A stretch of 64,000 nucleotides of DNA. Origin: a virus. The stretch is from IMG/VR virus record IMGVR_UViG_3300032117_000020; one strand, given 5' to 3'. Below are positions 2,247-32,370 of the stretch, one piece after another. The stretch's first letter is position 1. Every line of letters starts with the position of its first letter. The notes beneath the pieces were generated by a model that was not told the DNA's origin, did not search any database, and was given only the letters and a program-made list of their open reading frames with translations. Made by a program: the position numbers and the translations under genes.

Positions 2247-2255
2247 ACCCATCAA

Positions 2256-3443: not shown

Positions 3444-3447
3444 ATAA

Positions 3448-7223: not shown

Positions 7224-9329
7224 ATGATTCAAAAACAGACAACTATCAACACAACTTCGTCGGGCATTGATGTGCAGAAGGCATTTGGTATGAATTCTGA
7301 CGATATGCCTCATATCTTTAAGATTCTAAGAAATAACATCTACTCCAATAAGCCGCTGGCTGTTCTTAGGGAATATTTTTGCAATATGATCGATGCCCAT
7401 GTCATGGTCGATCAAGTTGATATTCCAGGAGAAATCACATTTCCTTCTGCTTTTGATCTGAATCTTAAGTTTAGGGATTTTGGACCTGGATTGTCTGAAC
7501 AAGATGTTTATGATATCTTTACCAAATATGGCGCATCCACCAAGCGTAATAATTCAAGCACAATGGGCTGTCTTGGTATCGGTTCTAAATCAGCATTTTG
7601 TATGACCAATAATTTTACAGTTGTGAGTTATTATGGTGGATTTAAAACAACCTATCTTTGCCATCTTGATCAAACTGGTCTTGGTCTTTGCTCTAAACTT
7701 GAACAGCAGATGTCTAGCGCCCCAAATGGCGTAGAAATTATTGTGCCAGTAAAGCACAATGAGATAAATTCTTTTGTGGAAGAGGCTAAGAAACTTTTCG
7801 TTTGGTCTAAAGTCAAGCCAGTTATCTATGGCAATGAAGAACTGGCAAATTATGTGAGGGGATTTAAACTTGATGTTGTGAGAAGCAGCAGTAATTGGCG
7901 ACTTTATAATATTCCATGTTCATATTTAAACTATGGACACAACTATTTAAACTATGAAATTATCTGTTTAATGGGCAATATTCCATATCCTATCAATCTT
8001 CAGCATTTTGATCGATATAATCCTAAGCATGCATTCTTCATGAAAAGTGGTGTAGGTCTGGTCATTGAAGTAGAACTGGGCGCTGTGAGTTTCAGCGCAA
8101 ACCGAGAAACGCTTGAATATGACAAAGACACTGTGGCTTATCTTCATAAATGCCTTGAAAATGTGTATGATGAAATTGAGGCTGAATTCAATAAGGCCCT
8201 TGCCCAAGCCCCCACATACTGGGATGCACTCATCAGATACGGTGAATATTCACAATATTTTGGAGCAATTAAACCCACATATAAAGGGAATGTGATTTCA
8301 AATGATTCATATGTCATTGAAAATGAGCAGTCAAAAAAAGCCGATGGTGGAAGTTTTTGGTCAGACATGGTTCGTTGCTATAATTACACCAATAGATACA
8401 GTGATATCAAAAAAGGCTCTATTCGACCAGAGAGACAGGCTTATATTTGCCCATCCAAAAAGCCAGTATTGTTTATGAACAAGGGAGACTTCCCCGAATC
8501 CACACTAAGAGATCGATTCTTTTATTATTGCGAAGCCAATAACATTGATCCGCGCAACACAGGCTGTACAATTATCACTATTACAGATGATACAAAAAGA
8601 GCAGAGTTTCTTGCAAGACCAGAACTTGATGGTACAAATTTTATTGATATGGCAGATATCATTGTGCCACCTAAAATTAGAAAAAAGCCTATCTACAAGA
8701 CTGTTGATAAGAGCAAGATTCAAATTCTTAAATACAATGGCTCCACACTATATCCCTACAGCAATTGCTGGGATGAGGCGAAGGTGGATAAAACTGACAA
8801 GATTATCTATGTGAGGATTGAAAAGTATGCGCCTATGTCGGATAAAATTGGCGATTTCAACAATAAACTTGGACAATATAAGTATCACTTTAAAGATGAT
8901 ATCGTGGTCTATGGCGTTAAAAAGGATGTAAAGGTGCCTAGTCATTGGGTAGAATACAGCGATTATATCAAAGAAAAGATCCAATTGAAAATTAAATCAT
9001 CTGAATTCAAAAAATATCATCAGGCAAAGAAGTTTTTCTCTGACCATATTAATGTAGATGAATTCAAGCCAGAAAAGCTAGATTCGGGATTGTTTAAGAA
9101 TTATGTGCTGAAGTGCGCAGAAATGTTGGTTCATCTAAACACAGCAAAGGTCACTGAATTCAACAGTTATGAAAGAGTGGCAAACCTTTTTAAAATTCCT
9201 GTGAACGACACATATCCCACATCCAGAGCGCTTTATTTAGAAAAAATTCTCAATAGATACCCGCTTCTTAAATTCTTAAGAACTTGGGTGGTAGAGGACG
9301 TTACGGAATATATTAATTATATCGATTAA
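7224..9329 (+). CDS. Hsp90/HtpG-like GHKL ATPase (701 aa)
   Basis: N-terminal YSNKplaVLRE..NmiDA resembles the Hsp90 YSNKEIFLRELISNASDA motif; FRDFGPGL and GCLGIGSKSAF match Bergerat-fold G1/G2 boxes. Confidence 0.6.
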   Translation: MIQKQTTINTTSSGIDVQKAFGMNSDDMPHIFKILRNNIYSNKPLAVLREYFCNMIDAHVMVDQVDIPGEITFPSAFDLNLKFRDFGPGLSEQDVYDIFTKYGASTKRNNSSTMGCLGIGSKSAFCMTNNFTVVSYYGGFKTTYLCHLDQTGLGLCSKLEQQMSSAPNGVEIIVPVKHNEINSFVEEAKKLFVWSKVKPVIYGNEELANYVRGFKLDVVRSSSNWRLYNIPCSYLNYGHNYLNYEIICLMGNIPYPINLQHFDRYNPKHAFFMKSGVGLVIEVELGAVSFSANRETLEYDKDTVAYLHKCLENVYDEIEAEFNKALAQAPTYWDALIRYGEYSQYFGAIKPTYKGNVISNDSYVIENEQSKKADGGSFWSDMVRCYNYTNRYSDIKKGSIRPERQAYICPSKKPVLFMNKGDFPESTLRDRFFYYCEANNIDPRNTGCTIITITDDTKRAEFLARPELDGTNFIDMADIIVPPKIRKKPIYKTVDKSKIQILKYNGSTLYPYSNCWDEAKVDKTDKIIYVRIEKYAPMSDKIGDFNNKLGQYKYHFKDDIVVYGVKKDVKVPSHWVEYSDYIKEKIQLKIKSSEFKKYHQAKKFFSDHINVDEFKPEKLDSGLFKNYVLKCAEMLVHLNTAKVTEFNSYERVANLFKIPVNDTYPTSRALYLEKILNRYPLLKFLRTWVVEDVTEYINYID

Positions 9330-9383: not shown

Positions 9384-10724
9384 ATGAAAACATATCAACC
9401 AAAAGCAAAAATTTTCAGCATCAGTGATAAAAACGAGGGTTTTATCACGGTCACATGGCCTGGATTATCAAAGACTGTGAGGTCAGATGATCCGCAATGG
9501 GAAAACTCCGTAAATGCGTTTAAATCAGAAAATTGGGAGGCACTTTATTATGCCATGAATCCTATTGAAACTCTGAATAAACTCTCCTACGGCAATATCA
9601 CCTACACCGATGGCGCACTGTATTACAAGGATCGTGTGGTAAATCACTCTCTTTACGAGCGAGTTCGACAGAATCTTAAAAACGGTTTTAGCGTGACATC
9701 AATGCTCGCATTCCTGGACAATCTTTATCAGAATCCATCTTTCAACAGCATTAGTCAATTGTATGCGTTTTTGGAGCAGCGGAATATTCCTATCACAGAT
9801 GATGGATGTTTTCTTGCATACAAGGCTGTAAGGTCCGACTACTACGATAAGTATTCCGGCACGATTCTTAACACTGTGGGCAAGATTGTGGAGATGGATC
9901 GAAGTCAGATTGATGACAACCCTTCGGCGTATTGCAGTTATGGTCTGCATGTGGGCGGACTTGACTATGTGAAGTGGTATGGCAATTTATCTGATGATAG
10001 AGTGATGATCGTAAAGGTGAATCCAAAGGATGCTGTAAGTGTGCCGTCAGATCACAGTTTCCAGAAGCTTCGAGTTTGCAGATATGAGGTTGTGGATGAA
10101 TATACAGCACCGTTAGAGGGCAATGTTTATAAGGCATCCTTAAACTCTGTTACAGATATGTCGGGCTCAGTATGTGATGAGGATTCATGGTGCGGTGGCT
10201 CCTGCACATGCTACGATGCAGATGATTCAGACATGTTTGATTTTGATGATCTGGATTATGATTTTTATCATGATTTTCAAAACAACAGTGGCTGGGTTTT
10301 AAGGGTTAAATATGATTCTGAATCCAAAACGCTGATTCTTGAGCATGATGAGCACAATACTGGCGCTCTTGAATACTATGGTCATCTCAATGTGCCAAAG
10401 CGAGTTGTAGAAAGTTTCGTATCAGCATACCGCCCAGGCGAGTACTATCATCGATATATCATGAATAAGTATGAGAAATTCGATGTGGGAAATGTTGATG
10501 ATTCAACAAATGAGAATGAAAATGATGAACTTGAAACCTATGATTTTTCAAGCGTCAGTTCATGGATCAGCCATGCCATCTATAATCATTACACTCAGGA
10601 ACTTGAAGTTGTACTGAAGAACGGCACATCATATCTTCATGAGTACGTAATTGATGCGGAGTGGGATGACTTCAAAAATGCAGACAGCCCAGGTACATTC
10701 TACAATGAAGTGCTGAAGGCTTAA
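9384..10724 (+). CDS. hypothetical protein with acidic Cys/Asp-rich central segment (446 aa)
   Basis: ORF track; promoter motif upstream; followed by strong hairpin. Confidence 0.55.
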   Translation: MKTYQPKAKIFSISDKNEGFITVTWPGLSKTVRSDDPQWENSVNAFKSENWEALYYAMNPIETLNKLSYGNITYTDGALYYKDRVVNHSLYERVRQNLKNGFSVTSMLAFLDNLYQNPSFNSISQLYAFLEQRNIPITDDGCFLAYKAVRSDYYDKYSGTILNTVGKIVEMDRSQIDDNPSAYCSYGLHVGGLDYVKWYGNLSDDRVMIVKVNPKDAVSVPSDHSFQKLRVCRYEVVDEYTAPLEGNVYKASLNSVTDMSGSVCDEDSWCGGSCTCYDADDSDMFDFDDLDYDFYHDFQNNSGWVLRVKYDSESKTLILEHDEHNTGALEYYGHLNVPKRVVESFVSAYRPGEYYHRYIMNKYEKFDVGNVDDSTNENENDELETYDFSSVSSWISHAIYNHYTQELEVVLKNGTSYLHEYVIDAEWDDFKNADSPGTFYNEVLKA

Positions 10725-15510: not shown

Positions 15511-15518
15511 ACACAATA

Positions 15519-15546
15519 GCCCCTTGCCAGATTTATGGCAAGGGGC
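15519..15546 (+). terminator. hairpin GCCCCTTGCCAgatttaTGGCAAGGGGC
   Basis: perfect 11-bp stem just after SPFH stop, followed by T-rich run. Confidence 0.6.
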
Positions 15547-15556
15547 TAAATATATT

Positions 15557-16167: not shown

Positions 16168-19100
16168 GTGTGGTATCGTTTCGCAGGCAAAGCAGATATA
16201 TTGAAAATTCTGAACAATGATGATGCTTTGTATCAGAAAGTAAAGAATGCGGTAAGAGATATACCACCTCAAAAACAATCAAAATATGAATATGTGGTGG
16301 CGAAATTCATAGATCAATCGCCAGAAAATCTCTACCATTATATTAATAAATTGTTTGAACTGCATGATAAATATCATTTTCCACTTGATGTGGGAAACAA
16401 GCAGATTATATTTAACAAGGCTCTTGTAAACGATTGGTTTTCTTTTGAGCAAAAAGTTGATGAACTTCTTGGCAAAAAACAATTTGAAAAATCTCAAAAA
16501 ACGAAACCACAAATTTCATTTGAAGAGCCTGAAATCAATCGAAAAAATGTGGTTGAAATATTCCCAATAAACAGCCCACAGGATGGAATGAAATTTAATG
16601 CTGTGCTACCATGGCAAACCTCATCGCCCTGGTGTATCACATCGATCAGAAATAACCAATATTATCGCTACCGCCTTGATCAAAAGGCTACTTTTTATAT
16701 TGTTATTGATCATACACGTCCTATTACAGACAAATGGTATGCTGTAGCACTGGATCATCTTCCGCATGGCTATTTTCTCACAGATTTACAGAATGGTTCA
16801 GAATATGGTGCAGATCAGTATCTTAAAGAACTTATTCAGCATATGAAAGAAAATGGTGATGAAAGAGATATTTATTCCCTCACGCCACATAAACCCTTTA
16901 CACAAGAAGAAGAAAACGAAAATCGTATTTTGGGTGAAGAGTTAAATTATAATGAATTTTTAAATTTAGACAAATCTGGAATTGAAGATGCACAGCTTAA
17001 ATACATTATCCGAGGCCATATTTTAGATTATGATCAGTTTAGACTTATATTAAACGCGCCGAAATTATTAAAGGCATACCTTACCACAGGCACTCCAAAA
17101 CCATCGAATCAAATTGAAAGTCTCAATCATAATGCCCGAGCAACTTATGAAAGAGAAATAGATAAAAAGATTGAATCATCCAAGCAGATGGGGCAATTAA
17201 ATGTCTTGTATCAACAAACCAATTATAACGAAGATTTTGTGAAAAAGGTTATAGAAGCCGGAGGCGACGTTTCAAAAGGGCTTGTTGCACTTAAAAATAT
17301 GGGAAAAGTAGAGTTCTCATATCTTGAAACACTCATTAGCAATGGGAAATTAGATGCGAATAAAGCGGTGCCATATCTAAAGTCCCCAAAACCCGAGCAA
17401 TTAAAATGGCTGTCTGATAAGGGCGCAGATCCTAATAATTATTATGCATATAGTTGGGCAAAAAATCTTGGATTTGTGAAATGGGCCATTGAAACTTATG
17501 GGGATGTAAAGCTGACACCTGACCAGATTGAATTATTTGCTGATAATTTGGATCAAGTGAAGCATTTTATTCAATGTGGCTTTGATCGTTCACAGATTAT
17601 TAGCAATACATCAAATTATGATGTAAAAGATTATTGCATCGACACAATATCAGATCCAAAAACAGCCACGAAGTGCCTCCATGCGCTGAGGTGTCGCACA
17701 CATGAAACTAAAAAATTAATCGAAAAAGGTGCGGATATCAACACCGCTCTAGAAGTTAATTGCCGAGAAGCCTGCGTTGATACATTGAAGATGATTATCA
17801 ATGATTATAATGTAGATCTTTCAAAAGATTTATTTGTTAGCGAAAAATTACAGCCAGCAAATAAATCATTGGCAATAAAATTTGCCAATGATAAAGATTT
17901 TATTCCATTTTTACTAAGTAAAGGACTAGACCCTTTACTGGTATTGGGCAACAGCAGCGATACAGGTGTCATAGCATCGTTGAACATAGACCCCAATATA
18001 ATTTTAAACAAATTAATTAAAATCGGTGGTTCCGACAAATATGCCCAGTTTTTGCTCGACAAAGGTGCTGACCCCACAGGTGTCTTGGGCCTTTTGCCCA
18101 CATACACCCATGACCTTGAATTGGTTAAAAATATTATTGAAAAGGGTGCTGATCCAAATAAATGCCTTCAATACATTAATAAAAATCCCGAGCTTTTGAG
18201 ATTATGTGTGGAAAAAGGAGCAGGTTTGAATAATGCGGCTCCATATGCTATAAATGATGTTGATTTTAAATGGCTGTTGGATAAGGGCGCTTATCCGGAC
18301 AATATTTTGGGCCAATCAAATATCAACAGAAATGTGATATTTATGTGCGTGGAGAAGGGTGGCAATCCTTCCCAGGCGCTAAAAGCCTACATAGAGTTGG
18401 ATAATCAAAATACAAACGATTTTAAAGAGCTGGCGGATCTTATCGATAACCCAGATGTTATTTTAGAATGTCTAAATCGTACATTTAGGCTCACTAGAGA
18501 AAATAAATTTGAACTTGTTAAATGGGTGATAGATCATAAAAATGGTGATGTTCATCGCCCATCATTTTTAAATATGATCTGCGGCAGAGAAGAAGTTTTG
18601 GTTTTGGCTATAAATAATGGACTAGAGCCTAATATCGCATTGAAATCTTTTAAGAATACCATACAAAATCTTTCCACAGTTGAACTTTTGCTAAATAAGG
18701 GTGTGGATTTTAGTGTGCCTGAAAACCTTAAAAACATAAAATTTGGTGACAGCGATATGATGGTTTATCTGTTTGAGCATGGCGTAAATGCTACGGCTCT
18801 TTTGCCGCTCGTAAATACAGATGATATGGTTATGTACCTTTTAAACAATGGCGCTGACCCCAATGAAACCTTAAAATATCTTCGTGGTCGCACCTACTTT
18901 TTTAAAGGAGATTTGAGCCAATTGGTTAAAGATTGCGTGGAGAGAGGCGCTGAGCCAAACAACGCAAATGGTATGATTTTTCAGGACAATGCTCTCATTA
19001 AATGGCTTTTAGAAAGAGGCGCAGATATTAATCTTATAGCCGATCAGGCCGCCTGGGACCCGCAGTTTTTTAGATTCATGCTGGAAAAAGGCGCAAAGCC

Positions 19101-20034
19101 TCACATATTGAATGATACTATGCCAAGCGATGCAAGAGATCCGCAATTTTTAAAGATGTTGGTTGATAAAGGGCTCCCAGTACATAACGTTGCATATAAT
19201 CATGCCATGGCGCACCCAATGATGATCGACTGGTTTTTAGACAGGTCAGACGACAAATCCTACAGCACTTCCGGCGTGATTGTAGAAGATCTTCTTGGCA
19301 CAGATTCTTATGTCAGTGAACCAAACTGTCAAATGTTTTCTAAAATCTCTCCTAAAACTGCGTATAGATTATACAAATTGCAGCGATCTTTCTATGAGTG
19401 GCGTGATTTTATGAATGCATCCATCACCTGCATAGATAAACAATATGGAGAAAAATGGAGGCTTGGATTTGTGAAACTTTTGGTGGAAGATGGCAAAATT
19501 GATCCAAAGATGATATCATTTTTTGCCACAAATCAGAGAGAATATAGTGTTCTAGATTATTTATTGTCTAAAGGCGCAGGCATAGATCAGGTGCTCTCAG
19601 AGTCTTATTATGACCTTGATGTGATTAAGTATCTTCTAGGTAAACAGTACATTGATGCAGATCAAGCGCTCGAATATGCGTTAAAACATGGTGATCATTA
19701 TGAAAATAGTGGTTTATTGTTGGATCTGATAGATATGGGCGTGGATGAACATGCTCTTCTTAAGGGAGCAAGGGCTTCTAAATCAGTTTTGGAGAAACTT
19801 TTACGGAAAGGAGCAAACCCAAATGAGTTGCTTAAAAGAGTGTTGCCATATATAAGCAAACTTCCAAAAGAAGATCAAGATGAATCTGTAGCGTGTTTAA
19901 TTACACATGGTGCGAATCTTGACACCATACTTCAATATCAGCCCATAGACAAAGATGTGCGAAAATCTTTTGAAGAATTTAAAAAGCATAAAGAAAGCAT
20001 TCAGAAAAAAATAGATATGCTACCAGGTCAATGA
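16168..20034 (+). CDS. giant ankyrin-repeat protein (1288 aa)
   Basis: >15 repeats of ~33 aa with KGADPN/ L..G.DPN signature; GTG start. Confidence 0.6.
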   Translation: MWYRFAGKADILKILNNDDALYQKVKNAVRDIPPQKQSKYEYVVAKFIDQSPENLYHYINKLFELHDKYHFPLDVGNKQIIFNKALVNDWFSFEQKVDELLGKKQFEKSQKTKPQISFEEPEINRKNVVEIFPINSPQDGMKFNAVLPWQTSSPWCITSIRNNQYYRYRLDQKATFYIVIDHTRPITDKWYAVALDHLPHGYFLTDLQNGSEYGADQYLKELIQHMKENGDERDIYSLTPHKPFTQEEENENRILGEELNYNEFLNLDKSGIEDAQLKYIIRGHILDYDQFRLILNAPKLLKAYLTTGTPKPSNQIESLNHNARATYEREIDKKIESSKQMGQLNVLYQQTNYNEDFVKKVIEAGGDVSKGLVALKNMGKVEFSYLETLISNGKLDANKAVPYLKSPKPEQLKWLSDKGADPNNYYAYSWAKNLGFVKWAIETYGDVKLTPDQIELFADNLDQVKHFIQCGFDRSQIISNTSNYDVKDYCIDTISDPKTATKCLHALRCRTHETKKLIEKGADINTALEVNCREACVDTLKMIINDYNVDLSKDLFVSEKLQPANKSLAIKFANDKDFIPFLLSKGLDPLLVLGNSSDTGVIASLNIDPNIILNKLIKIGGSDKYAQFLLDKGADPTGVLGLLPTYTHDLELVKNIIEKGADPNKCLQYINKNPELLRLCVEKGAGLNNAAPYAINDVDFKWLLDKGAYPDNILGQSNINRNVIFMCVEKGGNPSQALKAYIELDNQNTNDFKELADLIDNPDVILECLNRTFRLTRENKFELVKWVIDHKNGDVHRPSFLNMICGREEVLVLAINNGLEPNIALKSFKNTIQNLSTVELLLNKGVDFSVPENLKNIKFGDSDMMVYLFEHGVNATALLPLVNTDDMVMYLLNNGADPNETLKYLRGRTYFFKGDLSQLVKDCVERGAEPNNANGMIFQDNALIKWLLERGADINLIADQAAWDPQFFRFMLEKGAKPHILNDTMPSDARDPQFLKMLVDKGLPVHNVAYNHAMAHPMMIDWFLDRSDDKSYSTSGVIVEDLLGTDSYVSEPNCQMFSKISPKTAYRLYKLQRSFYEWRDFMNASITCIDKQYGEKWRLGFVKLLVEDGKIDPKMISFFATNQREYSVLDYLLSKGAGIDQVLSESYYDLDVIKYLLGKQYIDADQALEYALKHGDHYENSGLLLDLIDMGVDEHALLKGARASKSVLEKLLRKGANPNELLKRVLPYISKLPKEDQDESVACLITHGANLDTILQYQPIDKDVRKSFEEFKKHKESIQKKIDMLPGQ

Positions 20035-20097: not shown

Positions 20098-20128
20098 AAA
20101 AAGCAAGCGCAATTTGCGGAGCAACCTT

Positions 20129-21403
20129 ATGATCAAAAATGCAAAATATATCTATGTAGATGCAGTCAATAATAACAACAAATTCTGGAATATTGAAATT
20201 GATGCCAGTCATACCGTGACTACCTTCTGGGGTCGTGTTGGTGATGAGGGACAATCAAAATCCTTTCCTCATAACTCCGACTATGCTGCAGAAGCGTTCT
20301 TCAATAAGAAATGTCGAGAGAAGGAAAATAAGGGATACACAGTTCAGCGAACCATCAACAACGGCGCATCCGGTCCCACAGTGAAGGTTGTGGAGAGCCA
20401 TAATCTTGAGAATATTGCAAAATCTCAGATTCAAACCAACTCGCCAGAATTGGGTAAGCTGATTTCATATCTCGCCAAAGCAAACGCTCATAGTATTTTG
20501 TCCCAAACATCCATGCAATATAATGATGCCACAGGACTTTTCTCTACGCCATTGGGCATTGTGGATCAAGAGGCAATTGATGAAGCAAGAACATTGCTAT
20601 TAAAGATTAGTGATATGGTGCAGGCTAAAGATTATCGCGAAGATCGATTTATGCCTGTGCTGAGCAATTATCTAAGAATTATTCCTCAAGATATTGGAAG
20701 AAAGCGTCCAAATCCTGAACTATTGTACCCAGATCTTGAGTCAGTGCAGAGGCAGAATAATGTACTGGATTCTCTTGAGGCATCGCTTCAGGTGGCCCTG
20801 TCACCTAAAAATGATGGTGATAACCATACTACTGAGAAAGTTTTTGACGTGAAACTCCACACCGTGGAAGATCTTGGAATTATTGATAGGATTCGCAACA
20901 GCCATTACTCCACAAGGCAGCGCATGCATGCCACCTATAATCTTGATGTGAAAAAGATTTATGAGATTGAAATCGGCAGCATGAAGCGAGCATATGAGGA
21001 AAAGGGCAAAACACTAGGAAATATTTTTGAATTGTTTCATGGTAGCAGAATTTCCAATATTTTAAGTATTCTTCATAAGGGCCTTATGGTTCCACCATCA
21101 AATGCAGGTCATGTATGCGGAAGAAATTTTGGAAACTACACATATTTCGCAAATCAATCCACCAAAAGTCTCAACTATTCATATGGATATTGGGACAACA
21201 AGGCCAAGGACAACAATTGTTTCTTGTTTATTGCTGATGTGGCGCTGGGCAACTATTATGTGCCCGGATACAGCCAACAGGTAATTCCAAATGGATATGA
21301 CTCCTTTTGGGCTAAGGCTGGAAGATCTGGCGTACAAAATGATGAGATTGTGGTAAGAAATACATTTCAGGCTAATCTTAAGTATTTGGTTGAATTTGCC
21401 TAA
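20129..21403 (+). CDS. poly(ADP-ribose) polymerase homologue (WGR domain + PARP catalytic domain)
   Basis: N-term KFWNIEID...WGRVGDEG...KGYT = WGR; C-term LFHGSRISNILSILHKGL, GNYTYFAN, FLFIADVALGN, NDEIVVRNTFQANLKYLVEF match the PARP1 H-Y-E catalytic signature almost residue for residue. Confidence 0.8.
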   Translation: MIKNAKYIYVDAVNNNNKFWNIEIDASHTVTTFWGRVGDEGQSKSFPHNSDYAAEAFFNKKCREKENKGYTVQRTINNGASGPTVKVVESHNLENIAKSQIQTNSPELGKLISYLAKANAHSILSQTSMQYNDATGLFSTPLGIVDQEAIDEARTLLLKISDMVQAKDYREDRFMPVLSNYLRIIPQDIGRKRPNPELLYPDLESVQRQNNVLDSLEASLQVALSPKNDGDNHTTEKVFDVKLHTVEDLGIIDRIRNSHYSTRQRMHATYNLDVKKIYEIEIGSMKRAYEEKGKTLGNIFELFHGSRISNILSILHKGLMVPPSNAGHVCGRNFGNYTYFANQSTKSLNYSYGYWDNKAKDNNCFLFIADVALGNYYVPGYSQQVIPNGYDSFWAKAGRSGVQNDEIVVRNTFQANLKYLVEFA

Positions 21404-21453: not shown

Positions 21454-21861
21454 ATGAACACACGCAACTCAAACACACTCACTCAATTTTTGATGAATAA
21501 TGGCTTTAACTTCACAAGTGATGAAGACGGTTTAAAAGTTTATTCTAAAGCGCATAATAATTTAAGCCTGATTGTTACAATTAAAGACACAGGCGTTGTA
21601 GAATTCATAGCCACTGATGAAACTGAGAACGAGGATGTTATTTATTGCTACTCAAATTATTATGACAATAATGATTTTAATGATTTTATGGATTTCCTCA
21701 AACGTCATGTAAATCCAACGAAGCGCACTTACACACTCGCATTAACCTTTGATTCATATTATGATGAAAAAGAGATTAAAGAAATTGGCATCGATGATTT
21801 GAGAGACGTGATAGAAGAAAACATCTATCTAGATAATCTAACTATGAATCTCATACAATAA
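21454..21861 (+). CDS. hypothetical acidic protein (track ORF 21409..; start refined to ATG 21454 after promoter)
   Basis: ORF track; promoter spacing. Confidence 0.5.
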   Translation: MNTRNSNTLTQFLMNNGFNFTSDEDGLKVYSKAHNNLSLIVTIKDTGVVEFIATDETENEDVIYCYSNYYDNNDFNDFMDFLKRHVNPTKRTYTLALTFDSYYDEKEIKEIGIDDLRDVIEENIYLDNLTMNLIQ

Positions 21862-21886: not shown

Positions 21887-22495
21887 ATGAACACACTAAT
21901 TGAAACAATTCTTCAACAGCTTATCACCAATAAGCAAACATTCACAGCATATGATGTCACATTGGCATTGAGATATCAGGGGCATTGGGCCTTCAACAAC
22001 AATGTAAAGGATATCGTACATACCTTGATGCTTGATGAGGCGCAGTATAACCGTGTAAGCAAAAATTTTGGTATGAACAGTGCCTGGCTTTATTTCCATG
22101 AAGATAATGACCCAGAGAATTATGATCAGAACCTTCTACAGAGTTCACTGAAAACTGGGAATTTTGCGACTCAAACTCCCGCGCCAGCGACTCCAAAGAC
22201 CTTTCCATTTACTGTAAATTCAGAACTTAAAATTCGACTCAGCACAGAATTTTGCGAAGAACTTGGTGTGTGCCCTGGTCATCAGGTAAAGATGACCGCA
22301 ATTGATTCATATAAGGTCGCAATTGAGGCATATGATGATAATGGTGTAAGTTCAATGGATGAGCGCCTTTATACTTCTGATCAATACAACAATGTGAAAA
22401 TTAAGATGGATTATTTCTTTAAGAATGTGAAATCAGGCGATGTTGTAGAGTTTGAACTTAAAAACAACTACACAGCAATCGGTACGCTTCTTTAG
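21887..22495 (+). CDS. hypothetical protein (202 aa)
   Basis: ORF track. Confidence 0.55.
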   Translation: MNTLIETILQQLITNKQTFTAYDVTLALRYQGHWAFNNNVKDIVHTLMLDEAQYNRVSKNFGMNSAWLYFHEDNDPENYDQNLLQSSLKTGNFATQTPAPATPKTFPFTVNSELKIRLSTEFCEELGVCPGHQVKMTAIDSYKVAIEAYDDNGVSSMDERLYTSDQYNNVKIKMDYFFKNVKSGDVVEFELKNNYTAIGTLL

Positions 22496-22530: not shown

Positions 22531-22809
22531 ATGATTACTCTACAGGACTTAAAAACAGCAAACAATAAAAATGGAGACAATTACTTTGACTCCAATACTC
22601 TACGATTCTTCAACTCTACTATCAGTGAAATTAAGGGAGAAAAAGGAAAATTCGCCTATTTCATTGAGACAATTCACTATAATTCTCGCCCTACTCATAA
22701 AATAAGAAAGTTTGTGTGGGTAGGTGAGAATAAGGGCAGGGTTGAGAAAAAGACCTATGGAACCTATAAAACCATGAATGGCGCAATAAAAGGGCTGAAT
22801 AGGATTTAA
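22531..22809 (+). CDS. hypothetical protein (92 aa)
   Basis: ORF track. Confidence 0.5.
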   Translation: MITLQDLKTANNKNGDNYFDSNTLRFFNSTISEIKGEKGKFAYFIETIHYNSRPTHKIRKFVWVGENKGRVEKKTYGTYKTMNGAIKGLNRI

Positions 22810-23036
22810 TGACTATAGACATCTATGACATAAAAGTTGGTCAAATGGCTTGCATTACCGACTGTGAAGATAAAACATGGATTGGCACACTGGTTAAGGG
22901 AGTTTCGGCAAATCTTTTCATGGTTGTTAAGTCCAGAGACAAGTACATCATAAAAGGAAACGTCTATAAGGCGGTCAAAAGAATTGCTGTAATTGGGCAA
23001 TTAATTACAATAAATTGTCCAGAATATATGAAATGA
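22809..23036 (+). CDS. KIGD/PEYF mini-protein family member (array C)
   Basis: IKVGQMA... INCPEYMK. Confidence 0.55.
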   Translation: MTIDIYDIKVGQMACITDCEDKTWIGTLVKGVSANLFMVVKSRDKYIIKGNVYKAVKRIAVIGQLITINCPEYMK

Positions 23037-23260
23037 CAAACAAAGACATAAAGATAGGTCAAACGGTTAAAATTATCGGTAATTGCGGTGAAGGATGGAT
23101 GGGCACAATTGCTCAAAAAGCCAATTATGATGTATATGTCATAATTAAAAGTCCGCTAAGACCAGAAGATGTGGGTAAAGCGTTCCATTCGCAGGTTTCT
23201 TTGCTAAGATTAGTGACCGAAAATTGTCCAGAATATTTTAATGAGCTACAAAATAAATGA
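23033..23260 (+). CDS. KIGD/PEYF mini-protein family member (array C; start refined to ATG 23033)
   Basis: MTNKDIKIGQTV... ENCPEYFNEL; ATGA overlap. Confidence 0.55.
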   Translation: MTNKDIKIGQTVKIIGNCGEGWMGTIAQKANYDVYVIIKSPLRPEDVGKAFHSQVSLLRLVTENCPEYFNELQNK

Positions 23261-28367: not shown

Positions 28368-29207
28368 ATGAAAAATCAAGAAATTATCTACAAAACTGTT
28401 GTAGGAAGTCGCTCTCATGGTCTACATGTAGAGGGGATTTCAGACTTTGATTATCGCTATATTTTTAAACCATCATTAAAAAGCATTCTTTCTCCTTTTA
28501 AAAATCAGGAAAGAAAAATTGAGAATAAAAATGATGAAGATGTGGAATCATGGTCTATTGCTTCATTTTGTGAACATTTATGCAAAGGCAACCCCACAAT
28601 GTATGAGGTTATCAAAAGCCCATTATATGATAAAAATCTTGAACATTCAGAACAGATTCGTAAAATGATGCCGTTATCTTTGGACTCAAGAAAAATTCTG
28701 ATGGCTCATGCTGGTTATATTGAGGCGCAATTGAAGCGCTATTTGAGAAAGGCCAGTCATGATTTTAAAGATTATCAATATAAAATGTATTATGATCCCA
28801 ACATGCCACTTCTGGGCATTCCAAAATATGAGATGAAACAATATACCGGATATTCTCAGTTAGAAATTGATGGAGTCTGGGAATTAAATCATCTCCGTAG
28901 GGTGCCGAAAAGCTGCTGTGCTGGATATCGAATTTTCAGTCAATGCATGCAGCTCCTTGAGACAGGCGATTTCTGTCCTGTAATCAGCGATTATTCTCCA
29001 GAACTTCATGATGAATTGATGGAGATTAAACTGATGGACCCATCAACCATTACATGCGGATTCATTCAAACACATCTTGATGAACTTGAGCAAAAAATTA
29101 AAGATCTTCATAAATTTTTTGATAGCCTTCCAGAAAGCAAAAGGAATATGAAACCCAACATCTCAAAAATTGAAGACATTTTATGTGAAATCTATGGAAT
29201 TAGTTAA
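28368..29207 (+). CDS. Pol-beta superfamily nucleotidyltransferase (279 aa)
   Basis: VVGSRSHGLHVEGISDFDYRYIF = hG[GS]x9-13 D x D motif. Confidence 0.55.
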   Translation: MKNQEIIYKTVVGSRSHGLHVEGISDFDYRYIFKPSLKSILSPFKNQERKIENKNDEDVESWSIASFCEHLCKGNPTMYEVIKSPLYDKNLEHSEQIRKMMPLSLDSRKILMAHAGYIEAQLKRYLRKASHDFKDYQYKMYYDPNMPLLGIPKYEMKQYTGYSQLEIDGVWELNHLRRVPKSCCAGYRIFSQCMQLLETGDFCPVISDYSPELHDELMEIKLMDPSTITCGFIQTHLDELEQKIKDLHKFFDSLPESKRNMKPNISKIEDILCEIYGIS

Positions 29208-29568
29208 AAGATTTAATGCAAATGCTGTAATTGAGCCAAATGGCAAAATTCATCGAACAGCCTGTATGGGGCATCATAGTGTGCTCTGTGATGTTGCCAA
29301 CTATCAGGATTATGTAAGCAAACAATTCGACAATGGCAAAAGGGCAGACGGTCATGAATGGCAGGACTCTATGATTAATGATCGTCATTATATGATGGTT
29401 TGTGGCATTGAGTACTTTGTGGATACGGTGTATAGAGTTGTTTGCAGCAATACACCTACTCCACAGAGTGTGGAGTCATTATATAAAATCATTCAAGAAT
29501 CTCATGAATATGGTGACCTTACCACCTATCGACAGCTTTTAGAAATCTACAATCAATTATTAAAATAA
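29170..29568 (+). CDS. hypothetical protein (132 aa)
   Basis: ORF track; start uncertain. Confidence 0.4.
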   Translation: MKTFYVKSMELVKRFNANAVIEPNGKIHRTACMGHHSVLCDVANYQDYVSKQFDNGKRADGHEWQDSMINDRHYMMVCGIEYFVDTVYRVVCSNTPTPQSVESLYKIIQESHEYGDLTTYRQLLEIYNQLLK

Positions 29569-29571
29569 TCA

Positions 29572-30114
29572 ATGAAACAATTACTAATTTTACCAATTCA
29601 CTCATCTGCTGATATTATCACTAATTCCAGCAGTGAACTTTTTGTCTGTAATACTCAAAAAACCGAGCAGGATATTCGAGAGATGCTTGGATTATTGGCA
29701 CAGGTCACAGGAGATCATGGTGTGGGGAATATCAGGGTCTTACAGGGCGTCGATGGTTTTACACAGGTTTTAAATGATCTTGATGATTATCTAGATCAAT
29801 ATAGTGTGAATGAATTGCTCAGCAAATTTATAGGAGATAATGTTGTTGACAAAGCCGGTGGATATCCAAAATTTAACTACATCCGCGATTACAACAAACC
29901 AAAAGATATGGATTGGGAAGTTTATTATCGAATACAAGTCACCAAACTTCAATTTGCAATTGAAGAGATTGTGAATTGGATTAAAGATAATAATCTAGAA
30001 AATCATTTTGGCACCATCACATTGATTGAAAGCGAATCAGACAATTCGATTCCATATGAATTGTTTGATATTCTAGAATCTCAATTAAATGGCGTGAGGT
30101 ACCATCTTGGATAA
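29572..30114 (+). CDS. hypothetical protein, paralogue of next gene (shared IITNSSSELF motif)
   Basis: ORF track; paralogy by eye. Confidence 0.5.
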   Translation: MKQLLILPIHSSADIITNSSSELFVCNTQKTEQDIREMLGLLAQVTGDHGVGNIRVLQGVDGFTQVLNDLDDYLDQYSVNELLSKFIGDNVVDKAGGYPKFNYIRDYNKPKDMDWEVYYRIQVTKLQFAIEEIVNWIKDNNLENHFGTITLIESESDNSIPYELFDILESQLNGVRYHLG

Positions 30115-30619
30115 TAAAAATCAAAATCGAAGCTATGCCATTAAGTTTCATTCATTTGCTGGGATTATCACTAACTCCAGCAGTGAACTGTTTATGGTTA
30201 CCAACTCCAAGACTGAGGCTGAGATTATTGATGTGATCTGCAATCTCTATAAATCAACAGAGGCAGAGCCTGATGATATCAACATCACACTCATTGCTGA
30301 TGTGAGTCAGATGATTGATTTAGCATTAGCGGCAGGGATTAGTGTGGCAAAAAAATTGTTTAAAATCATTGATGTTGAGTGCGATGTTGAACCTGTGGAG
30401 ATTAGACCCGCAGTCTCAGGCTGGACTGCACTTAATAATGCCTATGAACTTCAAGACAGCATCAATCTTGATACACTGAAGGTTTTCATATCAGATAATG
30501 AAAAAGAGATTCAGGATAAATTTATGCCTTTTCTATATGTGAGGGCATGGTGTCAGGATTCAGAGGATTTTGGCAATATTGTGAGAGATCTTAATGGAAT
30601 TGAATTAGGAGGTTTTTAA
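30107..30619 (+). CDS. hypothetical protein, paralogue of previous gene
   Basis: GIITNSSSELFMV. Confidence 0.5.
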   Translation: MDNKNQNRSYAIKFHSFAGIITNSSSELFMVTNSKTEAEIIDVICNLYKSTEAEPDDINITLIADVSQMIDLALAAGISVAKKLFKIIDVECDVEPVEIRPAVSGWTALNNAYELQDSINLDTLKVFISDNEKEIQDKFMPFLYVRAWCQDSEDFGNIVRDLNGIELGGF

Positions 30620-30620
30620 A

Positions 30621-31484
30621 ATGCTTAGGCAAAGAAGATTTGAAGAAGAAAATTATCATGCGATTTTTAATAATGGCAAAACATTGAGATTTGCCATTGA
30701 TCCATCTAAACCAATTTTACCATTGAGATATCCTGAGATTGAGGATTGGGCCATAAATACAATCTGCCTAGCGAATTGCTCGTGGTGCTATGTATCTGCA
30801 TTAAAAACTGGAATTAACTTTGATAATGTAGTGGAAAAAATTCAAGATTATTTCGGAATTATAAGTTTAAACCATAGACCTACACAAATCGCGATAGGGG
30901 GCGCTGGTGAGCCAACAATGCACCCAGATTTTCCAGAGATTTTAAAAACCACATATGACCTCCAAATAATGCCAAACTATACCACCAATGCCATGCATTT
31001 ATCAGATAGGGTTGTGGATGCAACTATAAAATATTCAGGCGGAGCGGCTATTTCATGTCATCCTCATTTGAAAAAGGTATGGACAAAAGGCATTAATATT
31101 CTCACCGAGGCAGGCATCAATACATGTCTACATATTATTCTTGGTGAACCAGGTTCTAACGATGAATTTTGGCGAATTTATGATTCCACTAAAAATATTC
31201 ATTATTATGTGGTGCTGCCATATCAGGCTGCGGGCAGAGCAAAAAAAATTGATGCGGAAAAGGAATGGGATTTATTCTTTAAAGAGGCATTGATTCGGAA
31301 ACCTGATGATGTGAGTTTCGGTGCATTGTTTTATGATTATTTTCTAAGAAATAGAGACATCATGGCAAAGCTTAATGTGAGCATATATGAGCCAGAGGTG
31401 CTTTCGGGATACCGTATTTTTGATGATTCTTATAAACTGCTTAGAAAATCAAGCTATGACCTATCACCAAAATTTAATGATTAA
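30621..31484 (+). CDS. radical SAM enzyme
   Basis: CLANCSWCY = C-x3-C-x2-C cluster; downstream IAIGGAGEPTMHPDF glycine-rich SAM-binding motif. Confidence 0.65.
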   Translation: MLRQRRFEEENYHAIFNNGKTLRFAIDPSKPILPLRYPEIEDWAINTICLANCSWCYVSALKTGINFDNVVEKIQDYFGIISLNHRPTQIAIGGAGEPTMHPDFPEILKTTYDLQIMPNYTTNAMHLSDRVVDATIKYSGGAAISCHPHLKKVWTKGINILTEAGINTCLHIILGEPGSNDEFWRIYDSTKNIHYYVVLPYQAAGRAKKIDAEKEWDLFFKEALIRKPDDVSFGALFYDYFLRNRDIMAKLNVSIYEPEVLSGYRIFDDSYKLLRKSSYDLSPKFND

Positions 31485-31489
31485 ACATT

Positions 31490-31714
31490 ATGAGCAATTT
31501 TCAAGTAGGAGACAAAGTATATTTTTTAAGTTCATATGAATTTAATATAGGCGAAGTGAATGTGATCAATTCCGAATACATATTTGTAAAACTTTTAGAT
31601 CCGTTGTCATCAATTTACTATCCGTACCGTGATACAATAGCATTTGATATTAATAATAATAATCATAGACTAAGATTAGTAAGAAAATCCCCAGAATATT
31701 TTAAAGAACTATGA
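31490..31714 (+). CDS. KIGD/PEYF mini-protein family member (array E)
   Basis: MSNFQVGDKV... KSPEYFKEL. Confidence 0.55.
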   Translation: MSNFQVGDKVYFLSSYEFNIGEVNVINSEYIFVKLLDPLSSIYYPYRDTIAFDINNNNHRLRLVRKSPEYFKEL

Positions 31715-31965
31715 GCAATTTTAAATTTAAAGTAGGAGATTATGTGAAGTGGCGAGGCTTGTTGTCACAATATAGTGGCGTGATTGAGAATCTTTATACC
31801 ACATCCGCCACTGTGAGAATGGATTTTAGTTCACATAAACTGCTTAAGAAAGATACAGGATTTGATCTTGAAGGTAAATTATTTAGTATTGAATATTATA
31901 AGCTTACACATGTCATAAATTGTCCGGAGTATTTCAATGAAATCAATGAAAGCCAAAGATATTAA
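31711..31965 (+). CDS. KIGD/PEYF mini-protein family member (array E)
   Basis: MSNFKFKVGDYV... INCPEYFNEI + short read-through extension. Confidence 0.55.
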   Translation: MSNFKFKVGDYVKWRGLLSQYSGVIENLYTTSATVRMDFSSHKLLKKDTGFDLEGKLFSIEYYKLTHVINCPEYFNEINESQRY

Positions 31966-32158
31966 AAATCATAAGATCGTGAGAATAACCAGGGCCAATA
32001 ATTATAAATGGAACAATACCATTTTAAAAAGATGTGATTCACATTTAATTGTGATCAAATCGCCACTTGGCCATAAAAACCATGAATTCGCGATTGAATC
32101 ACTGTTTGACACTGATTTTAGATATTTTATAGAAAAACCGGAGTATATGAAAGAATGA
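31937..32158 (+). CDS. KIGD/PEYF family-related mini-protein (array E)
   Basis: C-term EKPEYMKE; divergent N-terminus. Confidence 0.45.
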   Translation: MKSMKAKDIKNHKIVRITRANNYKWNNTILKRCDSHLIVIKSPLGHKNHEFAIESLFDTDFRYFIEKPEYMKE

Positions 32159-32370
32159 AATTTAAAGTTGGAGATTTAGTGGCAATAAGATCATCGGATA
32201 GATTTAAAGCCCTCGTAGGATTGGTTGAGAACATATATAAGACAGGTTATTATAGTATTTCATTTAGCAATCAAGAACAAGACATCGACAACGGTGCCTG
32301 GGGATTTCATTTTTCTGAAATCCGCAAAGTCTGTGTAAAGCCGGAATATTTTGATGATAATTGTAATTAA
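32155..32370 (+). CDS. KIGD/PEYF mini-protein family member (array E)
   Basis: MKFKVGDLV... VKPEYFDD. Confidence 0.55.
   Translation: MKFKVGDLVAIRSSDRFKALVGLVENIYKTGYYSISFSNQEQDIDNGAWGFHFSEIRKVCVKPEYFDDNCN

Follow-up and report, generated by a model that had tools for sequence, protein, structure and literature searches.

A minimal WGR-HD-ART PARP encoded by an uncultured T4-like freshwater phage and a frequently linked gene for a predicted DNA-binding protein

In teaching, poly(ADP-ribosyl)ation generally figures as a DNA-damage signal of eukaryotes. Two bacterial enzymes of this type have been characterised, HaPARP from Herpetosiphon aurantiacus and CdPARP from Clostridioides difficile CD160; both are described as DNA-dependent polymerases of poly(ADP-ribose) that undergo auto-PARylation with NAD+ and activated DNA and show sensitivity to PARP inhibitors (PMC5966428, PMC4245714). 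The cataloguing of phage PARPs goes back to 2005-2014, with entries in several surveys (PMC1266365, PMC4245714, PMC7824862, PMC9503650), and our literature searches for experimental studies of phage PARPs returned surveys only and no assayed enzyme. The GenBank phages FBKp34, 05F01, XacN1 and Xoo-sp13 already carry a PARP annotation, and that of Klebsiella phage vB_KpM_FBKp34 gp111 lists the same three domains that we describe below. The phages with annotated PARPs infect Klebsiella (FBKp34), Xanthomonas (the jumbo phages XacN1 and Xoo-sp13), Stenotrophomonas (CM1, RAS14), Aeromonas (Aeh1) and Cellulophaga (phi4:1). Here we analyse a PARP gene located on a 64,000-nucleotide stretch of viral DNA (IMG/VR record IMGVR_UViG_3300032117_000020), called the window in the following; the features discussed are collected in Table 1.

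The length of 424 amino acids is also given by public gene calls on three further contigs encoding the same protein. An alternative TTG start at position 20114 is possible but lacks a ribosome-binding site. The protein matches phrog_23333 in the PHROG collection (E 2.1e-53), and Pfam found no domain in it beyond WGR, PARP_reg and PARP. A first-pass annotation of the sequence had proposed a virus-encoded PARP with a WGR domain, and this assignment stands: the PARP and WGR profiles were both recovered in the HMM search, all three Pfam domains score above their curated cut-offs, the AF2 model (pLDDT 85.7) matches PARP1 and PARP2, and the peptide strings quoted in that annotation are all present in the translation.

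Table 1. Positions of the PARP gene, its domains and catalytic codons, and of further genes in the window
Feature	Position	Strand	Details and basis
Divergent ankyrin-like repeat protein (Ank), 1,288 aa	16168..20034	+	immediately upstream of PARP; summed Pfam Ank E about 1e-11
Ribosome-binding site GCGGAG	20116..20121	+	GGAG at 20118-20121, 7 nt before ATG (sequence)
PARP gene, 424 aa, WGR-HD-ART	20129..21403	+	ATG at 20129, stop ends at 21403 (ORF list)
WGR domain, residues 9-73	20153..20347	+	Pfam E 3.5e-16, 59.5 bits vs 22-bit cut-off
Helical (auto-inhibitory, PARP_reg/HD) domain, residues ~93-235	20405..20833	+	Pfam and model
ADP-ribosyltransferase (ART) domain, residues 241-424	20849..21400	+	Pfam, phmmer, Foldseek
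Codon CAT, H304 (PARP1 H862)	21038..21040	+	invariant in 155/155 relatives
Codon TAT, Y339 (PARP1 Y896)	21143..21145	+	invariant in 155/155 relatives
Codon GAG, E406 (PARP1 E988, catalytic Glu)	21344..21346	+	invariant in 155/155 relatives
Small ORF between PARP and partner	21454..21861	+	sister-contig gene call; 135 aa from ATG, 150 aa from upstream TTG
Conserved PARP-associated partner, 202 aa	21887..22495	+	predicted N-terminal winged helix and C-terminal MraZ/AbrB-like domain
Namat/NAMPT-like gene	38553-40058	+	Pfam NAPRTase and NAMPT_N; phrog_448 E 3.5e-170; NCBIfam PRK09198 466 bits
Adps/Prs-like gene	41128-41994	+	phrog_619 E 2.3e-25; 41 bits vs 296-bit NCBIfam Prs cut-off

All three domains retain characteristic residues of human PARP1. 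In the AF2 model the WGR region forms strands in residues 3-47 and a helix in 51-67, and W34-G35-R36 (20228-20236, plus strand) align with W589/G590/R591 of PARP1; G35 and R36 are invariant in two alignments (A1, A2), and among 155 relatives the glycine is found in all and the arginine in 152. The Pfam PARP_reg match covers residues 139-235 (E 8.9e-8, 32.7 bits against a cut-off of 26.8), and the modelled HD helices, spanning residues 93-224, superpose on the HD of PARP1 and PARP2. Here L142, L213, L216 and D214 align with L698, L765, L768 and D766 of PARP1, and the core leucines are conserved. The Pfam PARP catalytic match extends over residues 254-377 (E 7e-26, 91.4 bits, cut-off 26.7), and the C-terminal strand of the ART domain can be aligned with PARP4 and tankyrase as far as residue 423. 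The H-Y-E triad claimed by the first-pass annotation was confirmed in a proper alignment, in which the catalytic glutamate is present together with the histidine and the tyrosine. The remaining NAD+-site residues G305, K346, S347 and Y350 (PARP1 G863, K903, S904 and Y907) are likewise intact, and none of the 155 prokaryote and phage relatives in the alignment departs from the active-site H, G, Y, K, Y and E.

The window PARP shares domain order and fold with the WGR-HD-CAT core of human PARP1, PARP2 and PARP3. Searching PDB sequences with phmmer, residues 10-385 matched the WGR-HD-CAT part of human PARP1 (E 1.2e-20) and PARP2 (E 5e-17), and with Foldseek the model superposed on DNA-bound PARP1/PARP2 (4dqy_C, 4opx_C, 7aeo_A, 6x0l_P) with E values of 1e-22 to 1e-24 and TM scores of up to 0.68; for the WGR-HD-CAT part of PARP1 the values are E about 1e-24 and TM 0.65-0.68, the upper one being reached with DNA-bound PARP1. 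The C-terminal match to PARP1 is nevertheless not "almost residue for residue", as had been stated, since overall identity to human PARP1 is only ~22-23% and a loop in front of the catalytic glutamate is about 29 residues shorter: the stretch from the ALGN motif to this glutamate, counted from the sequences, comprises 30 residues here against 59 in PARP1. The phmmer alignment to PARP1 is interrupted at residues 385-405, and the position of PARP1 Y986 is taken by N404. In contrast to eukaryotic PARP1 proper, the protein opens with the WGR domain at residue 9, and the zinc fingers (Zn1-3), the BRCT domain and the rest of the N-terminal region are absent according to Pfam. The setting also differs from that of the human PARPs, being an infection in a bacterium, which has no chromatin, and an HPF1-like gene was not recognised. 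Tankyrases join ankyrin repeats and PARP in one chain and contain a SAM domain but neither WGR nor HD; the phage PARP has both WGR and HD and no SAM domain (Pfam), and the ankyrin-like repeats are found on a separate polypeptide.

The two characterised bacterial enzymes, compared via published numbering and descriptions, resemble the phage protein in several respects. HaPARP and CdPARP also do without zinc fingers and BRCT, and their H-Y-E residues have nearly the same spacing, with H322/Y359/E428 published for CdPARP (intervals of 37 and 69) and intervals of 35 and 67 in the phage protein. They differ in being bacterial rather than phage-encoded, and their hosts pair the PARP with a DUF2263-type PARG, whereas no PARG or other eraser was detectable in the window. 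Instead, in the window and in about half of the related loci the PARP is paired with a predicted winged-helix/MraZ-like protein. ADP-ribosyltransferases of the T4 Alt/ModA/ModB type, which belong to the R-S-E clade and the Alt/VIP2 fold family, were considered as well and rejected, the motif being H-Y-E and the best family PF00644 PARP. The protein is most likely, as far as residues and domains can tell, a catalytically competent PARP1/2/3-type ADP-ribosyltransferase of the prokaryote/phage clade with a minimal WGR-HD-ART architecture. The triad would permit the synthesis of poly(ADP-ribose), but is not sufficient to guarantee it: human PARP3 and PARP4 possess H-Y-E and yet are mono-transferases, and the replacement of Y986 by N404 and the shortened loop also call for caution as to polymer formation.

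Relatives of this PARP are numerous. At E<=1e-5 we found 1,251 protein clusters, of which the closest are about 430 amino acids long, 46-86% identical and encoded on phage and bacterial metagenomic contigs. Related PARPs are present on 76 IMG/VR viral contigs and in 31 species genomes of bacteria; those of Armatimonadota, Blastocatellia and Gemmataceae are 45-52% identical to the phage protein, and some close homologues lie in bacterial chromosomes without phage context. The PARPs annotated in FBKp34 (gp111), 05F01, XacN1 (BBA65562.1), Xoo-sp13, CM1, RAS14 and Aeh1 are full-length homologues with 31-35% identity over 97-100% of the length, and the Cellulophaga phage proteins (phi4:1) match the catalytic core only. 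The window PARP is about one third identical to these annotated proteins and belongs to a different, uncultured freshwater clade. In a rough neighbour-joining tree with human PARP1 set as outgroup, PARP1 has a long branch, whereas the window PARP nests among viral contigs, its nearest relatives being metagenomic contigs, including viral contigs of 378 and 441 kb (L010, L011). The tree suggests that the phage sequences may be basal. Judged by sequence, it is a member of an already catalogued, large prokaryote and phage family and not a rare eukaryote-like oddity. The earlier view that WGR-PARPs are essentially eukaryotic and rare in phage-like genomes finds no support in the face of these clusters, contigs, genomes and GenBank annotations, and the eukaryotic donor that it implied is at odds with the tree.

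The source of the DNA is a T4-like freshwater phage: the window contains rIIA and rIIB, PHROG matches and small ORFs densely packed on one strand. The PARP gene is located in the early/accessory region, where early-type accessory genes surround it and rIIA and rIIB lie upstream. A megablast of the 20 kb around it against GenBank phages gave no match, so that no close sequenced relative of this phage is present there. The promoter and terminator scan of the region from 15.4 to 24.4 kb was uninformative, with fewer promoter-like sites than in shuffled sequence and none between the Ank gene and PARP; gene spacing suggests co-transcription around PARP. In the large protein encoded upstream no single repeat passes the Pfam threshold, and designed ankyrin proteins in the PDB match it with E 4e-4. 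The order Ank, PARP, small ORF, partner is kept on two related contigs (L005 and L006, PARP 64% identical) and at no other locus. A tankyrase acting in trans, with the giant Ank protein as target recruiter, was considered and set aside because the pairing is confined to a single phage lineage and the ankyrin signal of the repeats is weak.

The first-pass annotation had also listed genes of NAD+ and ADP-ribose metabolism in the same window. The NAMPT-like and the Prs-like genes were recovered with Pfam and PHROG, whereas the macro domain was not. The two genes are located 1 kb apart and 17 kb from PARP and look, from their profile matches, like a NARP1-like pair for rebuilding NAD+, any functional link to PARP being conjectural; a RyR-domain gene is also found in the window. 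Pfam, run on the called ORFs of at least 70 amino acids as concatenated pseudo-proteins (a few short or overlapping ones omitted), detected no macro, PARG, ARH or NADAR domain in the 64 kb, a six-frame scan showed no macro motif, and HMMs built from macro-like, NADAR, nicotinamidase-like, ligase and Nudix clusters of other PARP loci had no match in the window. A complete reversible PAR system, consisting of PARP and eraser, was accordingly not detected in the window, which is only part of the phage genome. The picture is different elsewhere. In other phage loci the neighbours of PARP include ATP-dependent and NAD-dependent DNA ligases, NADAR and a DarG-like macro domain, and in six of them a T4 Rnl1-type RNA ligase lies directly upstream. 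It may simply be that large phages cluster their accessory genes and that the ligases and erasers lie near PARP for this reason.

What seems to be newly seen here is a conserved partner gene tied to PARP loci. We compared the neighbourhoods of 77 non-redundant loci (64 viral and 13 bacterial clusters) and found a gene for a protein of about 200 amino acids beside PARP in 41 of them, always on the same strand, downstream in 40 and within 100 bp in 17; reciprocal look-ups returned the pairing in all three cases. The small ORF that separates the two genes in the window has no Pfam or PHROG match, and conservation of it was seen in a single other contig, that of the closest related phage (L005). 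For the partner we found neither a name nor a Pfam family, no model exists for it in PADLOC, and the literature searched does not mention it. Its predicted fold suggests that it is apparently a DNA-binding protein. HMM scans of the PARP loci of FBKp34, 05F01, Xoo-sp13, XacN1 and RAS14, and of LR756500, revealed no partner near PARP, tblastn with two partner sequences found nothing in cultured phages, and no cultured carrier of the pair was found. Since about half of the loci, among them those of all cultured phages examined, lack the partner beside PARP, it cannot be an obligatory cofactor. One Gemmataceae MAG encodes, directly upstream of a WGR-PARP, a fusion of a partner-like domain with a reverse transcriptase.

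The best explanation for the whole is that the phage encodes a WGR-HD-ART PARP carrying out break-activated ADP-ribosylation, with the partner as target, cofactor or regulator; we put its probability at about 60%. This mechanism is proposed by analogy with the homologous human PARP1-3 and the characterised bacterial enzymes HaPARP and CdPARP. As in human PARP2 and PARP3, a break in a nucleic acid would be bound by the WGR domain, this binding would lift the auto-inhibition exerted by the HD, and the ART domain would then attach ADP-ribose from NAD+, probably in chains, to PARP itself and to nearby DNA-bound proteins, the conserved partner presumably being one of them. Activation by DNA or RNA breaks is suggested by the conservation of WGR and HD and by the published data on HaPARP and CdPARP. 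DNA ends and nicks are abundant in a T4-type infection, and it is at these that PARP and partner would act, possibly to the benefit of the phage. In a more far-reaching version, which is tentative and rather doubtful, PARP and partner would form an undescribed two-gene module shared by large phages with some bacteria of soil and freshwater, and the partner would be devoted to break-triggered ADP-ribosylation as its DNA-bound acceptor, cofactor or regulator.

It might also be that the enzyme serves host takeover in the manner of T4 Alt, ModA and ModB, ADP-ribosylating, in the early phase of infection, the RNA polymerase, translation factors or defence proteins of the host; WGR would then be a general nucleic-acid tether and breaks would be irrelevant. 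Such a role was proposed for jumbo-phage PARPs by Iyer et al. (PMC7824862), and it would fit both the early-type surroundings of the gene and the lack of Alt/Mod-type transferases in the Pfam scan of called ORFs, although the window is part of a genome and Alt/Mod genes may be located elsewhere. A constitutive modifier of host proteins would, however, have no need for the W-G-R and the HD core leucines that are conserved across the 155 relatives, and the close homologues in bacterial chromosomes without phage context speak against it too; we regard this explanation as unlikely.

A further explanation takes its cue from the ligases, NADAR and DarG-like macro domains that recur in the PARP neighbourhoods of other phages. 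The enzyme could, as human PARP2, PARP3 and TRPT1 do, ADP-ribosylate terminal phosphates of DNA or RNA and thereby cap or mark the ends against host nucleases or for the control of ligation. The minimal WGR-HD-ART architecture is that of the PARP2 and PARP3 cores, and PARP-family enzymes reportedly ADP-ribosylate phosphorylated RNA ends. In such a scheme macro or NADAR enzymes of other phages would remove the cap. But ligase, NADAR and macro neighbours are all absent from the window, and both characterised bacterial homologues modify protein, namely themselves; end modification is given a small probability.

The AbrB/MazE-type domain of the partner is typical of antitoxins, and PARP and partner might form a toxin-regulator pair of the toxin-antitoxin, abortive-infection or superinfection-exclusion kind. 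On sensing foreign DNA ends, PARP would use up NAD+; its MazE/AbrB-like partner would keep it in check or autoregulate it, and the NARP1-like genes would guard the phage's own NAD+ supply. The sporadic distribution in bacteria, a PemK toxin gene adjoining one bacterial PARP gene, the reverse transcriptase fusion in the Gemmataceae MAG and the NARP1-like pair and RyR-domain gene in the window are in line with such a role in conflict. On the other hand, the PADLOC defence models match neither PARP nor partner, the sampled diversity consists mostly of lytic-type large phage contigs (64 viral against 13 bacterial clusters), and the partner gene lies downstream of PARP and is missing from half of the loci, its product exceeding typical antitoxins in length, so that we consider a toxin-regulator pair improbable. 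A recent capture from a eukaryote, where the architecture was first described and whose PARP1 is matched significantly, or a decayed inactive remnant can practically be dismissed, since prokaryote and phage proteins are 46-86% identical but human PARP1 only ~22%, the tree places the protein among viral contigs and PARP1 on a long branch, and the unbroken ORF retains all catalytic residues.

By itself, the locus is one more example of a PARP from an uncultured phage and as such not surprising. What gives it value is the comparison across loci, which shows a large and diverse phage family with a frequent link to a predicted DNA-binding protein and, in other loci, to ligases and ADP-ribose hydrolases. 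As a candidate target or cofactor of break-activated ADP-ribosylation, the partner provides a concrete handle on the role of PARP in phage infection. If the two-gene module were real, the partner would be the prokaryotic counterpart of the histone/HPF1 side of eukaryotic PARP signalling, and the variant fused to a reverse transcriptase hints at a use in defence. For studies of NAD+ warfare, it is of note that one phage combines a PARP that consumes NAD+ with a RyR-domain gene and a NARP1-like pair of the kind that rebuilds NAD+. Furthermore, the comparative picture bears on the possible descent of eukaryotic PARP signalling from a phage/bacterial conflict system.

The PARP gene of the window encodes an intact protein made up of a WGR domain, a helical regulatory domain (HD, Pfam PARP_reg) and a catalytic domain (ART) with a complete NAD+ site. 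The position of the ORF and every peptide quoted in the first-pass annotation were borne out in the translation. A GGAG is located 7 nt 5´ of the ATG, and public gene calls for the identical protein on three other contigs likewise give 424 amino acids. Pfam profiles recovered the WGR and PARP domains above the curated cut-offs, a match far beyond chance. Among PDB sequences, residues 10-385 matched the WGR-HD-CAT fragment of human PARP1 (E 1.2e-20) and PARP2 (E 5e-17), and the final strand aligned with PARP4 and tankyrases. The top PDB matches to the AlphaFold2 model (50 homologues as input, mean pLDDT 85.7) were the DNA-bound PARP1 WGR-HD-CAT chains 8g0h_D, 4opx_C and 4dqy_C (E ~1e-24, TM 0.65-0.68), with the PARP2 chains 7aeo_A and 6x0l_P also among the best.

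To map residues, the human PARP1 core was aligned by MAFFT with 155 relatives from prokaryotes and phages, and codons were checked. The catalytic glutamate is present (E406), and the catalytic-site H, G, Y, K, Y and E are identical in 155/155 relatives. The fit to PARP1 had been called almost residue for residue, which overstates an identity of ~22-23%. Two differences from PARP1 matter for polymer versus single-unit modification: N404 replaces Y986, and the loop before the glutamate is ~29 residues shorter (ALGN to Glu, counted from the sequences, is 30 residues here versus 59). The H-to-Y-to-E spacing of 35 + 67 is nearly that of H322/Y359/E428 published for CdPARP from Clostridioides difficile CD160 (PMC5966428). 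Since CdPARP makes PAR, a loop this short is normal for the family rather than defective. The window PARP is very probably an active member of its family.

Features of the window and of its PARP protein
Feature	Position	Strand	Size	Evidence or remark
rIIA	7224-9329			phrog_612 E 8.5e-93
rIIB	9384-10724			Pfam Phage_T4_rIIB on sister contig
Ankyrin-like repeat protein	16168-20034		1,288 aa	many faint repeats; directly upstream of PARP
PARP ORF	20129 (ATG) to 21403 (stop end)	+	424 aa	
WGR domain	residues 9-73			Pfam E 3.5e-16; 59.5 bits, cut-off 22
PARP_reg domain	residues 139-235			Pfam E 8.9e-8; 32.7 bits, cut-off 26.8
PARP catalytic domain	residues 254-377			Pfam E 7e-26; 91.4 bits, cut-off 26.7
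WGR motif	W34/G35/R36			PARP1 W589/G590/R591
HD residues	L142, L213, L216, D214			PARP1 L698, L765, L768, D766
Catalytic residues	H304/G305			PARP1 H862/G863
Catalytic residue	Y339			PARP1 Y896
Catalytic residues	K346/S347/Y350			PARP1 K903/S904/Y907
Catalytic residue	E406			PARP1 E988
Partner gene	21887-22495	+		
IS607-type pair	34419-36261	-	187 aa, 431 aa	serine resolvase (Pfam Resolvase E 2e-16), TnpB (Cas12f1-like_TNB E 1e-10)
NAMPT-like gene	38553-40058			real
Prs-like gene	41128-41994			real; 1 kb from NAMPT-like gene
RyR-domain protein	45503-45859		118 aa	Pfam E 1.9e-5; 3.5 kb beyond Prs-like gene

Otto et al. reportedly surveyed the PARP-like family in silico as early as 2005. The kind of PARP found here is already known, and ours is a new uncultured example. 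Perina et al. (2014, PMC4245714) listed those of Aeromonas phage Aeh1 and Cellulophaga phage phi4:1. For XacN1 and other jumbo phages, Iyer et al. (2021, PMC7824862) described PARPs and suggested polymer modification of host proteins; in their later survey (Iyer et al. 2022, PMC9503650) the PARP ("PART") family is one of the ARTs that viruses encode most often. Literature searches turned up no phage PARP that had been studied experimentally. The bacterial enzymes HaPARP (Herpetosiphon aurantiacus) and CdPARP are inhibitor-sensitive and PARylating, modify themselves given NAD+ and activated DNA, and each have a PARG paired with them (PMC5966428, PMC8120803). An Alt/Mod-like modifier acting in host takeover would be in line with the host-protein targets suggested in 2021; set beside the conservation of the WGR motif and the HD core leucines across the 155 relatives, we regard it as rather unlikely.

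We read the window as early or accessory DNA of a large uncultured myovirus, T4-like or of another type, based on rIIA and rIIB, PHROG matches and gene organisation. Its GC content is ~35%, nearly all genes lie on one strand, and a DenV-like pyrimidine-dimer glycosylase, a dCMP deaminase, a C5 DNA methyltransferase and DnaJ are encoded. Structural genes were not found in the window, and megablast with 20 kb around the PARP gene gave no match to GenBank phages; JGI freshwater-metagenome contigs carry the identical PARP protein. Unusually, the rIIB homologue is fused at its C-terminus to KTSC domains (Pfam E 9e-19, two stretches). The IS607-type pair runs against almost all other genes and has probably entered the phage genome as a mobile element; at another PARP locus, L117, a TnpB lies between PARP and the partner gene. 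At least 14 paralogous small-protein ORFs (65-131 aa, no Pfam match) are scattered over the window, for example at 3880-4116, 4532-4977, 22809-23260, 31711-32575 and 33725-34314; a K-I-G-D-like motif opens many of the proteins, and the C-terminal motif is in every case C/K-P-E/D/N-Y-F/M/L (CPEYFKEL, CPEYMK). An RlaP-like nucleotidyltransferase (an RNA-repair family), two paralogues of 170-180 aa with a common IITNSSSELF motif and without known domain, and a radical-SAM protein follow each other at 28368-31484 and may form a so far uncharacterised cassette for modification or repair. A perfect palindromic hairpin (15517-15548, 13-bp stem, 8 G-C pairs) at the junction of the SPFH/Band_7 and metallophosphatase genes is terminator-like on both strands by scan score.

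Gene neighbourhoods were compared across ~113 loci, comprising the window and other viral as well as bacterial PARP regions; flanks reached at most 10 kb on each side, and the called ORFs were clustered by BLASTP. The window shares with a sister contig, whose PARP is 64% identical, a gene order that runs from the giant ankyrin-like repeat protein through PARP and a small ORF to the partner, a member of a ~200-aa family; the repeat protein-PARP arrangement is kept in the sister contigs L005 and L006. Such a giant repeat protein is unusual for a phage early region, and it weakly matches the PADLOC candidate model PDC-M72A (E 1.6e-7). Genes that recur near PARP elsewhere, given as raw counts without genomic background, encode a DarG-like macro domain in 14 loci, a nicotinamidase-like protein in 12, NADAR in 11, a T4 Rnl1-type RNA ligase in 10 (directly upstream in 6) and an ATP-dependent DNA ligase in 9; NAD-dependent DNA ligase and Nudix/NMNAT also recur. 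On a 153-kb phage contig (L004 10001-16116, PARP 53% identical), PARP is followed by two small ORFs, an ATP-dependent DNA ligase, the partner and an ADP-ribosylglycohydrolase (PF03747), placing writer, ligase and eraser within 6 kb. An enzyme that, like PARP2/3 or TRPT1, modifies the ends of DNA or RNA in concert with ligases and erasers is what these other loci would bring to mind; for the window it is improbable, its called ORFs (≥70 aa, minus a few short or overlapping ones) containing no Pfam macro, PARG, ARH or NADAR domain.

A motif scan and HMMs of the eraser families adjoining PARP elsewhere likewise found no macro domain or other eraser in the window. Of the context genes claimed in the first-pass annotation, the NAMPT-like and Prs-like genes stand and the macro domain does not. 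The Prs-like protein scored 41 bits against an NCBIfam Prs cut-off of 296, which fits an Adps-type enzyme, and therefore the two genes look, by sequence, like the NARP1 pair of Adps and Namat (bioRxiv 10.1101/2024.02.11.579819, PMC12774641). A 2026 preprint linked phage RyR-domain proteins to the breakdown of ADPR-based immune signals; together, the NARP1-like pair and the RyR-domain gene suggest an NAD+ counter-defence island. A functional link to the PARP, 17 kb away, is plausible since PARP consumes NAD+ and the pair would rebuild it.

Among all PARP neighbours the partner family stands out. It was present in 35 loci by BLAST clusters and in 51 by an HMM built from those. With PARPs collapsed at 70% identity it accompanied 41 of 77 clusters (34/64 viral, 7/13 bacterial), always on the PARP strand (41/41), downstream in 40/41, within 100 bp in 17/41 and within 1 kb in 30/41. 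Conversely, three members taken for their large contigs from a profile search of a large database, without regard to PARP, all had a WGR-PARP within 5 kb upstream (3/3); these contigs are probably related jumbo phages. None of 390 database relatives has a Pfam domain or name, and PADLOC has no model for the family. The conserved N-terminal ~80 residues (consensus FTAFDVT...R...H..V...Y.RT...A.LYHP..D..DY) are predicted to form a winged helix. Similarity of the C-terminal part to AbrB/MazE/MraZ is weak but consistent: the PDB profile reached AbrB at E 0.04, 7 of the 8 matches listed were AbrB/MazE-type, and two family members matched Pfam MazE_antitoxin (E 1.7e-5); the AlphaFold2 model had a pLDDT of 78.8. 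The partner is absent beside PARP in every cultured phage checked, which shows that it is not obligatory. A conflict module of toxin-antitoxin or abortive type, regulated by the partner, would suit the MazE-type similarity; with the partner lacking at about half of the loci, we consider this quite improbable. The Aravind surveys make no mention of an AbrB or MraZ-type neighbour, and PARP and partner may, tentatively, constitute an undescribed module. In a Gemmataceae MAG, a 641-aa protein (L116 18-1943) combining the partner HMM (E 1.7e-28) with RVT_1 (E 9e-20, residues 359-560) lies directly 5´ of a 557-aa WGR-PARP (2013-3686), an operon that recalls defence-associated reverse transcriptases.

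PARP relatives form 1,251 clusters at E<=1e-5 in a large protein database; the best 120 are almost all 420-440 aa with the same domains and 46-86% identity. A pattern and tblastn scan yielded 76 IMG/VR viral contigs, many of 150-550 kb, and, with one GTDB genome per species, hits of 45-52% identity in 31 genomes. Some of these hits lie on contigs of 1-6 Mb, and most of the genomes belong to Armatimonadota (Chthonomonadaceae, Armatimonadaceae, Capsulimonadales), Blastocatellia and Gemmataceae. GenBank phage homologues are full-length at 31-35% identity, several already annotated as PARP; carriers are Klebsiella FBKp34, 05F01 and KP13-16, Xanthomonas XacN1 and Xoo-sp13, and Stenotrophomonas CM1 and RAS14, and the annotation of FBKp34 gp111 names all three domains. 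Some jumbo-phage contigs have two WGR-PARP_reg-PARP paralogues ~10 kb apart (L118 3615-5114 and 13649-15061; L119 6545-8041 and 18936-20354), with an NAD-dependent DNA ligase upstream; the first copy is followed by NADAR and the partner, the second by a GNAT acetyltransferase. In a rough NJ tree, only indicative given the method, the lack of support values and pattern-biased sampling, the window PARP clusters with P0002, P0003, P0005 and P0006 (the 441-kb viral contig L011 has the same PARP as P0005); viral sequences extend across the deep part of the tree, bacterial ones form a crown cluster, and human PARP1, set as outgroup, is on a long branch. This spread and the tree place the donor lineage in the prokaryote/phage pool, and the eukaryotic origin implied earlier was not borne out, with human PARP1 at far lower identity than the closest relatives. 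Recent eukaryotic capture, or a dead enzyme despite the invariant catalytic site, is thus extremely improbable.

Judging from PARP1-3, HaPARP and CdPARP, the WGR domain would bind a nucleic-acid break, the HD would unfold, and the ART would move ADP-ribose from NAD+ onto the PARP itself and nearby proteins, probably as chains; the partner would most likely be its DNA-bound target, cofactor or regulator. We give this overall reading a probability of roughly 60%. T4-type infections abound in nicks and ends from host DNA degradation, recombination-dependent replication and packaging, and a break-activated PARP would thus be switched on during infection. In the phage context, PARP is in conserved pairing with a predicted DNA-binding protein.
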